From Candidatus Aenigmatarchaeota archaeon (GTDB taxonomy: Archaea > Aenigmatarchaeota > Aenigmatarchaeia > PWEA01), in NCBI GenBank assembly GCA_046539325.1, contig JBKHHD010000002.1, forward strand, positions 32,001 to 96,000: a stretch of DNA of 64,000 bases, written 5' to 3'. This document shows, in pieces, positions 45,855 through 46,646 of this stretch. Both the position numbers and the translations under genes were made by a program. How positions within the stretch are numbered: the stretch's first letter is position 1; each line of letters starts with the position of its first letter. Below the pieces are notes generated by a model. It was given only the letters and a program-made list of their open reading frames with translations. It was not told the DNA's origin and ran no database searches.

Positions 45855-46049
45855 ATGGCGATACTGACTACGGAAGAAATGGAAGATATGAGCAAGGATA
45901 ACCTGGAGGAAAGGCTTGACGAGCTTCAGCTGGAGCTCGCAAAGGAAAAGGCACAGGTCAAAATAGGCGGTGTACCGGAAAATCCAGGTAAGATGAACGA
46001 GATGAAAAGGACCATAGCAAGGATAAAAACAAAACTTTCCGAGATGTGA
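45855..46049 (+). CDS. rpl29: 50S protein uL29
   Basis: MAIL...E, ENPGK...KRTIARIKT. Confidence 0.93.
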   Translation: MAILTTEEMEDMSKDNLEERLDELQLELAKEKAQVKIGGVPENPGKMNEMKRTIARIKTKLSEM

Positions 46050-46060
46050 GGTGAAAATAA

Positions 46061-46366
46061 ATCGCTAACTGTCCCGACTGTGGTATGCCGGAGGAACTCT
46101 GTGTCTGCGATACCATAGCAAAGGAAGAGGAAAAGATAGAGGTTCGCAAGACAAGGAGGAGCTACGGAAAGGAACTCACCATAGTAGAAAACGTTTCGGA
46201 AGATATGAACCCTGAGGAACTCGCAAAGAAGTTAAAGAAAAACCTTGCGTGTGGCGGAACTTATAAGGAAGGTAGGATAGAACTACAGGGCGACCACCTA
46301 CGGAGGATAAAGGACATCCTCATCGAGGAGGGCTTCCCTGAAGGCAAGATAGAAATAAAGAACTGA
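46061..46366 (+). CDS. sui1: Translation initiation factor aIF1 (SUI1), probable ATC start
   Basis: (M)ANCPDCGMPEELCVC zinc knuckle, YGK, LACGGT, IELQGDH. Confidence 0.92.
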   Translation: MANCPDCGMPEELCVCDTIAKEEEKIEVRKTRRSYGKELTIVENVSEDMNPEELAKKLKKNLACGGTYKEGRIELQGDHLRRIKDILIEEGFPEGKIEIKN

Positions 46367-46367
46367 T

Positions 46368-46646
46368 ATGAGAAAGGTCGAAAACCTCCCCAGGCACGAG
46401 CTGATCGGTCTGGAGATGGAGGTAGTTGAAAGCGAGAATACGTCGGAGGAGGGCATACACGGGAAGGTGGTGGACGAACACAAAAGTGTTTTAAAAGTTG
46501 AGTGCGAAGGTGATGAGAAAACCTTGAGGAAAAGGGGACGCGTGTTTAAGTTCGAGCTCCCTTCAGGAAAAAAGTGCAAGATCGAAGGTGAACTCCTGGA
46601 AGGACGTCCCGAGGAAAGAATAAAGAAAAAATTGAGGAAATGGTGA
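46368..46646 (+). CDS. rnp1: RNase P protein component 1 (Rpp29)
   Basis: HELIGL.EV, GI.G.VVDE, L.GRPEERIK. Confidence 0.92.
   Translation: MRKVENLPRHELIGLEMEVVESENTSEEGIHGKVVDEHKSVLKVECEGDEKTLRKRGRVFKFELPSGKKCKIEGELLEGRPEERIKKKLRKW

Follow-up and report, generated by a model that had tools for sequence, protein, structure and literature searches.

The aIF1 (SUI1) gene of this Aenigmatarchaeota genome very probably begins its translation at an AUC codon at position 46061, as judged by comparison with its relatives. By analogy with bacterial infC, we lean toward a reading in which aIF1 would limit its own synthesis through this start. The window, which is the whole stretch of 64,000 nucleotides that we analysed, corresponds to C2:32001-96000 of a DPANN genome (G000; Aenigmatarchaeota) of 715,179 bases in 10 contigs, rated 91% complete. 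Bacteria (with IF3) and eukaryotes (with eIF1) keep the stringency with which start codons are chosen steady through a poor start of the proofreading factor's own gene. In archaea, aIF1 is the homologue of eIF1, yet mRNAs use Shine-Dalgarno pairing as in bacteria. We know of no described archaeal equivalent of the IF3 and eIF1 self-control, and a conserved AUH (AUC, AUA or AUU) start on aIF1 would, if it does serve self-control, supply an archaeal third case.

The aIF1 start site and its conservation in the order

The aIF1 gene lies within an S3-L29-aIF1-Rpp29-S17 operon, in which ribosomal protein S3 precedes L29 and the neighbours were identified by Pfam (Table 1). The L29 stop codon TGA shares two bases with the aIF1 Shine-Dalgarno (SD) sequence and lies 11 nt 5' of the ATC in this genome and genus, and the Rpp29 ATG stands one base past the aIF1 stop. 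The aIF1 frame, IANCPDCGMPEELCVCDTIAKEEE..., reads from ATC 46061 to TGA 46364-66, and its product carries a SUI1 domain (PF01253, residues 23-93, E 7.1e-21, 74.9 bits against a cut-off of 25.5), which was the sole SUI1 match in a Pfam search of the whole genome. The product also matched the NCBIfam subfamily model NF002096 (PRK00939) at 122.3 bits against a cut-off of 98 and fell under the cut-off of the equivalog model TIGR01158 (93.1 versus 111.65); the NCBI name for the NCBIfam models that it matched is 'YciH'. Residues 3-99 aligned with positions 4-101 of the 102 in the PRK00939 profile, and the pairing of residue 3 with position 4 indicates that the family normally begins within one residue of the ATC. 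The N-terminus, a predicted zinc knuckle, matches the archaeal motif CX2CGLPX3C-phi-C, with M replacing L in this genome and in G003. PMC6237735 describes this motif and zinc binding for aIF1 of M. jannaschii.

Table 1. Features of the aIF1 region, in positions of the window
Feature	Position	Strand	Remarks
rpl29 (ribosomal protein L29)	45855..46049	+	ATG start; TGA 46047-49; Pfam Ribosomal_L29 E 5e-15
Shine-Dalgarno GAGGTGA	46048..46054	+	6 nt 5' of the ATC; complementary to the 16S 3' end
In-frame TAA	46058..46060	+	closes the aIF1 frame on its upstream side
ATC, proposed aIF1 initiation codon	46061..46063	+	aligns with the ATG column of out-group genes
aIF1 (SUI1) CDS, predicted from ATC	46061..46366	+	101 codons plus TGA 46364-66
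Zinc knuckle (predicted) C-PD-C-G-M-P-EEL-C-V-C	46070..46108	+	Cys codons 46070, 46079, 46100, 46106
First in-frame ATG (M of MPEEL), probably not the start	46085..46087	+	column unconserved in the genus; no SD
RNase P subunit Rpp29	46368..46646	+	Pfam RNase_P-MRP_p29 E 2e-24

The preliminary description of this DNA had proposed an AUC start on the basis of a GAGGTGA run, an in-frame TAA behind it and the frame ATC GCT AAC TGT CCC GAC TGT GGT ATG (46061-46087), and each of these was verified in the sequence. The 16S rRNA of this genome ends in ...GGATCACCTCC (at C2:56750), so that GAGGTGA forms a perfect SD of 7 bases, complementary to the 16S 3' end over its full length. Between the TAA and the first Cys codon there are only the codons ATC, GCT and AAC, which bears out the claim that no ATG, GTG or TTG is available there. 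The first ATG indeed sits past the first CxxC, and no SD-like run precedes it.

The order comprises 6 families and 9 genera with 22 species genomes; all of these possess the aIF1 gene, and we read its start region in each. The start column contained ATC in 17 genomes, ATA in four and ATT in one, and never ATG, which is common at the aligned column in other orders of the class (e.g., L023, L028, and L029). An SD of the GGTGA type was found exactly 6 nt upstream of the AUH codon in 21 of the 22 genomes; the remaining locus (L019) has a G-run at 5 nt. Thus, an alignment of aIF1 upstream regions from relatives, which the preliminary description had suggested as a check, revealed a non-AUG start codon kept in 22/22 genomes, and an ATG at the position of 46061, which would have counted against the proposal, was absent from all of them. 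The order-wide ATC, ATT or ATA at the out-group ATG column, the fixed SD spacing, the synonymous-only variation of the Cys codons and the ATG starts of flanking genes together support initiation of aIF1 at AUC.

We also applied a conservative rule by which any canonical codon up to 9 codons before the first Cys was counted as a start. Under this rule, 18 of the 22 genomes had a near-cognate codon only, and the other four had a canonical codon only at position -1 before the Cys (ATG in three, GTG in one), 15 nt from the SD. Fourteen genomes offer no canonical in-frame codon until 15 to 45 codons beyond the first Cys, and a start there would cost the protein its knuckle and some of the SUI1 fold. 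In four more genomes, including that of the window, the first such codon was located five codons past the first Cys, behind the first CxxC. Residues C4, C7, G8, P10, C14, and C16 were invariant in all 13 aligned aIF1 proteins. Within the genus, the codons between the ATC and the first ATG differ synonymously (TGT/TGC, GGT/GGA/GGG, and CCG/CCC/CCT), which argues that this stretch is translated, and the open frame is 101 aa long in 6/8 genomes.

Public protein calls already include the ATC-started, 101-residue form, both for the product of the window (P0002) and for a relative (P0003, from NCBI), with MANCPDCG as the shared N-terminus. Other public calls (P0004, P0005, P0008, P0021, P0023, and P0027) are truncated to 93 aa (beginning MPEEL or MPKEL) or to 60-63 aa, with the zinc knuckle or half of the SUI1 domain gone. 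Gene callers restricted to ATG, GTG and TTG thus cut this essential gene back to 93 or some 60 residues in the public records and will also miss other AUH-started genes in these genomes.

The shorter versions, which come from Prodigal-type calling, raise the question of whether aIF1 begins elsewhere: at the downstream ATG, at a codon just before the first Cys as available in the four genomes mentioned above, or by a restart after L29 that bypasses normal start-codon selection and for which the 11-nt distance between the L29 stop and the ATC in this genome would be favourable. We consider these alternatives improbable. The M of MPEEL is present in two of the eight genus genomes, and the other six have CTG, CTA, TTG or CAG, that is, Leu or Gln, in its place; a protein beginning at MPEEL, which the preliminary description had named as a refuting outcome, is therefore disfavoured, and we rejected this start because its Met is unconserved and knuckle Cys residues would be lost. 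More generally, the truncated forms lack invariant Cys residues or half of the SUI1 domain, and the PRK00939 alignment opens at residue 3 of the longer form. Against a dependence on restart, a genome from another family of the order (G021) retains both the ATC and the SD though its L29 frame ends about 40 nt before the aIF1 frame. Termination-reinitiation from the L29 stop could nevertheless contribute to initiation at the AUC, by a route that is maybe less sensitive to aIF1.

A base-call check had also been proposed, and it found no differing letter in three Logan re-assemblies, which are contigs rather than raw reads. The stretch was identical in the contigs of three public runs: two, at depth 62 and 73, are perhaps from the source sample, and the third, at depth 2 and spanning 45900-46142, is from a different sample within the same study. 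The genome is metagenome assembled, and another such assembly (G274) has a frameshifted metK, yet an error in sequencing or assembly, or decay of the gene, is an exceedingly remote explanation for the AUC: beyond the identical re-assemblies, 22 species genomes assembled independently share this class of codon, no break interrupts the frame, the knuckle varies only synonymously, and the gene is the sole SUI1 gene of a genome rated 91% complete.

The flanking genes of the operon served as controls for start-codon usage. L29 starts at ATG in 22/22 order loci, S17 in all 21 loci with a match and L14 in all 19 loci with a match. Rpp29 has a canonical start in 22/22 loci (TTG in one, and ATG one or two codons upstream in two). 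We found no AUH start among these four genes at any site examined in the order loci. For L14, the mechanical list of open reading frames gives GTG 46961 as the start; relatives keep only ATG 46970, several of them with a stop between the two, and from the alignment ATG 46970 is the likelier start.

As a separate observation within the genus, the nine nucleotides ATC GCT AAC (46061-46069) are invariant, third positions included, in 8/8 genomes, and the codons that follow vary synonymously. Constraint on the context of the start may be reflected in this invariance.

Non-canonical starts in other genes of the class

We screened genome-wide for other genes with such starts by comparing all stop-to-stop frames between the window genome and two others and identifying conserved protein upstream of the first canonical codon. 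The first comparison was with G021 (same order, another family; 800 of 833 kb compared, the last 33 kb absent, with 6200 N), and the second was with G274 (another family of the class, with aIF1 at ATG; 740 of 742 kb compared, the last 2.4 kb absent, with 8400 N). Clear cases were counted from flagged rows sorted by eye, and these counts are lower bounds. Most flagged ortholog pairs could be dismissed as broken frames, as rRNA or antisense shadow frames, or as extensions by 3-5 residues that run across the SD region by chance. Counting codons behind GGTGA in the window genome was too noisy, as GGTGA is frequent within genes, and ortholog comparison was used instead. In G274, metK was found to be frameshift-split a few codons past its ATG (near G274:C1:704,100).

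Among the 369 ortholog pairs with G021 (324 at stricter cut-offs), we detected at least three clear non-canonical starts per genome, with gene identities assigned by Pfam. In the window genome, these were aIF1, glmS, and a PIN_9 gene; in G021, they were aIF1, rpoN at ATT, and rps15 at ACG. The 248 pairs with G274 yielded at least one clear case in that genome, pheS at ATC behind GGTGA plus TTTT, and one doubtful case. The rpoN (L115:2087-2278, - strand) and rps15 (L126:4129-4590, + strand) genes of G021 likewise have their apparent ATT and ACG starts behind GGTGA plus TTTT, and in each the corresponding column of the window genome has ATG. The apparent ATC start of pheS (L230:18324-19568, + strand) occurs in G274, where aIF1 itself has an ATG start.

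Both additional cases in the window genome are outside the window. In glmS (C1:86836; L151:1501), an ATC behind a GAGGT run directly precedes the catalytic Cys codon and must for that reason be the start. Across the 18 order genomes with a match, glmS starts at ATG in 15, at GTG in two and at ATC in this genome only, and its ATC may have arisen recently, may be peculiar to one strain or may stem from misassembly. The PIN_9 (PF18477) gene (C1:88895-89287; L173:1501-1893) has ATC or ATT behind GGTGA or GGTGG in all nine genomes of family f1, where the first ATG is found only past the conserved LDANF motif. Elsewhere in the order, 10 of 12 PIN_9 loci have ATG at that column or the next, and the other two (L190 and L191) are truncated or disrupted N-terminally. 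Judging from these comparisons, the class makes occasional use of AUH initiation, and aIF1 is the case with the deepest conservation.

These additional genes keep an alternative account of the aIF1 start alive, in which the AUC start is real and no feedback operates: the weak codon would set a low, fixed output of aIF1 within a highly expressed operon, or it would be tolerated through lax start selection in reduced genomes. The occurrence of AUH or ACG starts behind strong SDs in PIN_9 (9/9 f1 genomes), glmS (1/18), rpoN and rps15 (G021), and pheS (G274), at about three clear cases per genome as a lower bound in the G000-G021 comparison, is consistent with a weak start being a mere tuning device or a sign of lax start selection in the class. 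The conserved AUH start of PIN_9, a gene without a known link to start-codon choice, indicates that such tuning exists, and the position of aIF1 among ribosomal protein genes fits this account as well. The sequences would bear the same marks whether aIF1 is under feedback or is tuned down to a fixed level within a strongly expressed operon.

Nevertheless, we regard this account as possible but on balance unlikely. Neutral tolerance leaves unexplained the 22/22 conservation without any ATG. Over six families the third base has drifted between C, A and T and has never become G, which argues for selection keeping the start weak. Sporadic drift looks like glmS, with its single ATC among 18 genomes, and the difference between the two genes supports selection on the aIF1 start. 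Furthermore, Rpp29, another low-copy protein of the same operon, has kept a canonical start in 22/22 loci. Finally, if aIF1 rejects AUH codons as a review (PMC4705826) reports for Sulfolobus, an AUH start on the aIF1 gene itself entails feedback.

A candidate self-limiting loop

Our preferred reading, self-limitation of aIF1 through its own AUC start, would work as follows. The strong, unstructured SD 6 nt upstream would position the 30S subunit, and the ordinary initiator tRNA (anticodon CAU) would pair with AUC except for a third-position mismatch. Because initiation complexes formed at non-AUG codons would be destabilised by aIF1, its own mRNA would be initiated less as the factor rises and more as it falls. 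The result would be a self-limiting loop built like that of bacterial infC (IF3, AUU), with a purpose shared by eukaryotic eIF1 and its poor start context. Two of these steps we infer: that aIF1 of this organism discriminates against AUC and that this discrimination feeds back on the level of aIF1.

Several features of the genome are consistent with the first steps of such a loop. The window genome has one tRNA with anticodon CAU that combines A1:U72 with three G:C pairs in the anticodon stem, which we take to be the marks of an ordinary archaeal initiator tRNA. An unusual initiator tRNA was thus ruled out as an explanation, as the CAU initiator looks standard. We detected no conserved RNA structure around the start, as the consensus of the 22-sequence alignment contained two invariant pairs at -0.54 kcal/mol without covariation. 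In the window genome, the single-sequence fold at the start was no better than that of shuffled sequences (z +1.14; 181/200 shuffles folded at least as well). In the same genome, Aragorn predicted 11 tRNA genes without an intron search and 30 with it, some of the 30 being doubtful (e.g., 'Stop(tta)'), and many tRNA genes seem to carry introns.

The biochemistry of other archaeal aIF1 proteins bears on the later steps. According to a review (PMC4705826), S. solfataricus 30S-aIF1A-aIF2-tRNAi complexes bound both AUG and AUU mRNAs without aIF1 and only AUG mRNA with it. If the factor studied here rejects AUH codons in the same way, feedback would follow automatically from an AUH start. Likewise, P. 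abyssi aIF1 is described as a proofreader with a role in fidelity in the part of PMC6237735 available to us, where self-regulation is mentioned for eukaryotic eIF1 only. The protein encoded here would resemble those of M. jannaschii, P. abyssi and S. solfataricus in its SUI1 fold, its N-terminal zinc knuckle and its 30S fidelity function; unlike here, the available parts of PMC6237735 and PMC4705826 describe no non-AUG start or self-regulation for them. We also searched full-text literature, with subscription journals mostly outside its scope, and found no report of a non-AUG start or self-regulation of archaeal aIF1.

The bacterial infC gene reportedly combines an AUU start codon with translational autorepression, which Butler et al. 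are said to have described in 1987. The aIF1 gene is similar to infC in that a fidelity factor rejecting non-canonical starts is encoded behind an AUH codon and an SD, in that the odd start codon is kept among relatives (here 22/22) and in that the expected logic is the same, with more factor giving less initiation on its own mRNA. In contrast to infC, the codon here is AUC, AUA or AUU, the gene is inside a ribosomal protein operon and the two factors, IF3 and aIF1, have unrelated folds. For infC, feedback is proven, whereas for aIF1 it is proposed from sequence.

For eIF1, Ivanov et al. reportedly found in 2010 that an AUG in poor context brings about negative autoregulation. aIF1 is a homologue of eIF1, sharing the SUI1 domain and the role in start-codon stringency, but eIF1 uses an AUG in weakened context that is reached by scanning, whereas the aIF1 gene would use a near-cognate codon placed by an SD. 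We found no conserved poor-Kozak AUG of the eIF1 type, as the aIF1 start has no AUG and a fixed 6-nt SD spacer.

aIF1 start codons outside the order

A broader reading, which we put forward tentatively and hold to be somewhat doubtful, is that self-limitation of aIF1 recurs in archaea, with AUH in this order, CUG or GUG in Asgard archaea of the Thor type and perhaps UUG in archaea of the Nitrososphaerota type. If so, the same control logic would be present in all three domains of life, on two unrelated factors. The level of aIF1 would then also set the output of the AUH-started PIN_9 nuclease and sporadically that of glmS, rpoN, and pheS, which would amount to a stringency regulon. The presence of AUH starts in these same genes is also the reason that plain down-tuning of aIF1 stays a live rival. 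The other weak-start aIF1 genes (CTG, ATA, Asgard CTG or GTG, and Thermoproteota TTG) share the weak start with those of the order and differ in the class of codon. GTG and TTG are ordinary archaeal start codons, and such aIF1 cases are therefore weaker evidence. Furthermore, many archaea have ATG for aIF1, so any such loop would not be universal.

Class-wide, we obtained an aIF1 match in 349/371 genomes and read start-region DNA at 110 loci. The 66 further distinct loci outside the order, mostly Aenigmatarchaeota, comprised 46 with ATG, 15 with GTG or TTG and five with a near-cognate codon only. These five have CTG (L027, L045, L048, and L099) or ATA (L083); the CTG-only loci L045, L048, and L027 belong to the Aenigmatarchaeia families f19 and f16, and L083 belongs to family f7. 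At several of the GTG-start loci outside the order, the GTG is inside the SD and CTG or ATA occupies the usual column.

In the Asgard phylum of L099, a locus labelled Thorarchaeota, we sampled 151 genomes and read the best 30 loci. The 28 new loci among these best 30 (in the range L231-L259) included no ATG, 16 with GTG and 12 with a near-cognate codon only, mostly CTG. Two of the near-cognate-only loci have a GTG 12 codons upstream, inside the SD; L259 has ATA, and L255 perhaps has ATT. A sample of 61 Thermoproteota genomes (the phylum of L105; Pfam based, best 30 matches) mostly had ATG. Both of these samples take the best 30 matches and are therefore biased by clade. Among the 17 new knuckle-bearing Thermoproteota loci, 11 start at ATG and six at GTG or TTG, and of the loci without a knuckle, read by eye, 11/12 have ATG. 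Six look-alike Thermoproteota aIF1 genes (LSEIC...) start at TTG behind AGGTGA (L268, L281, L286, L287, L289, and L290), and one of them, L287, is the same place as L105 and is labelled Nitrososphaerota.
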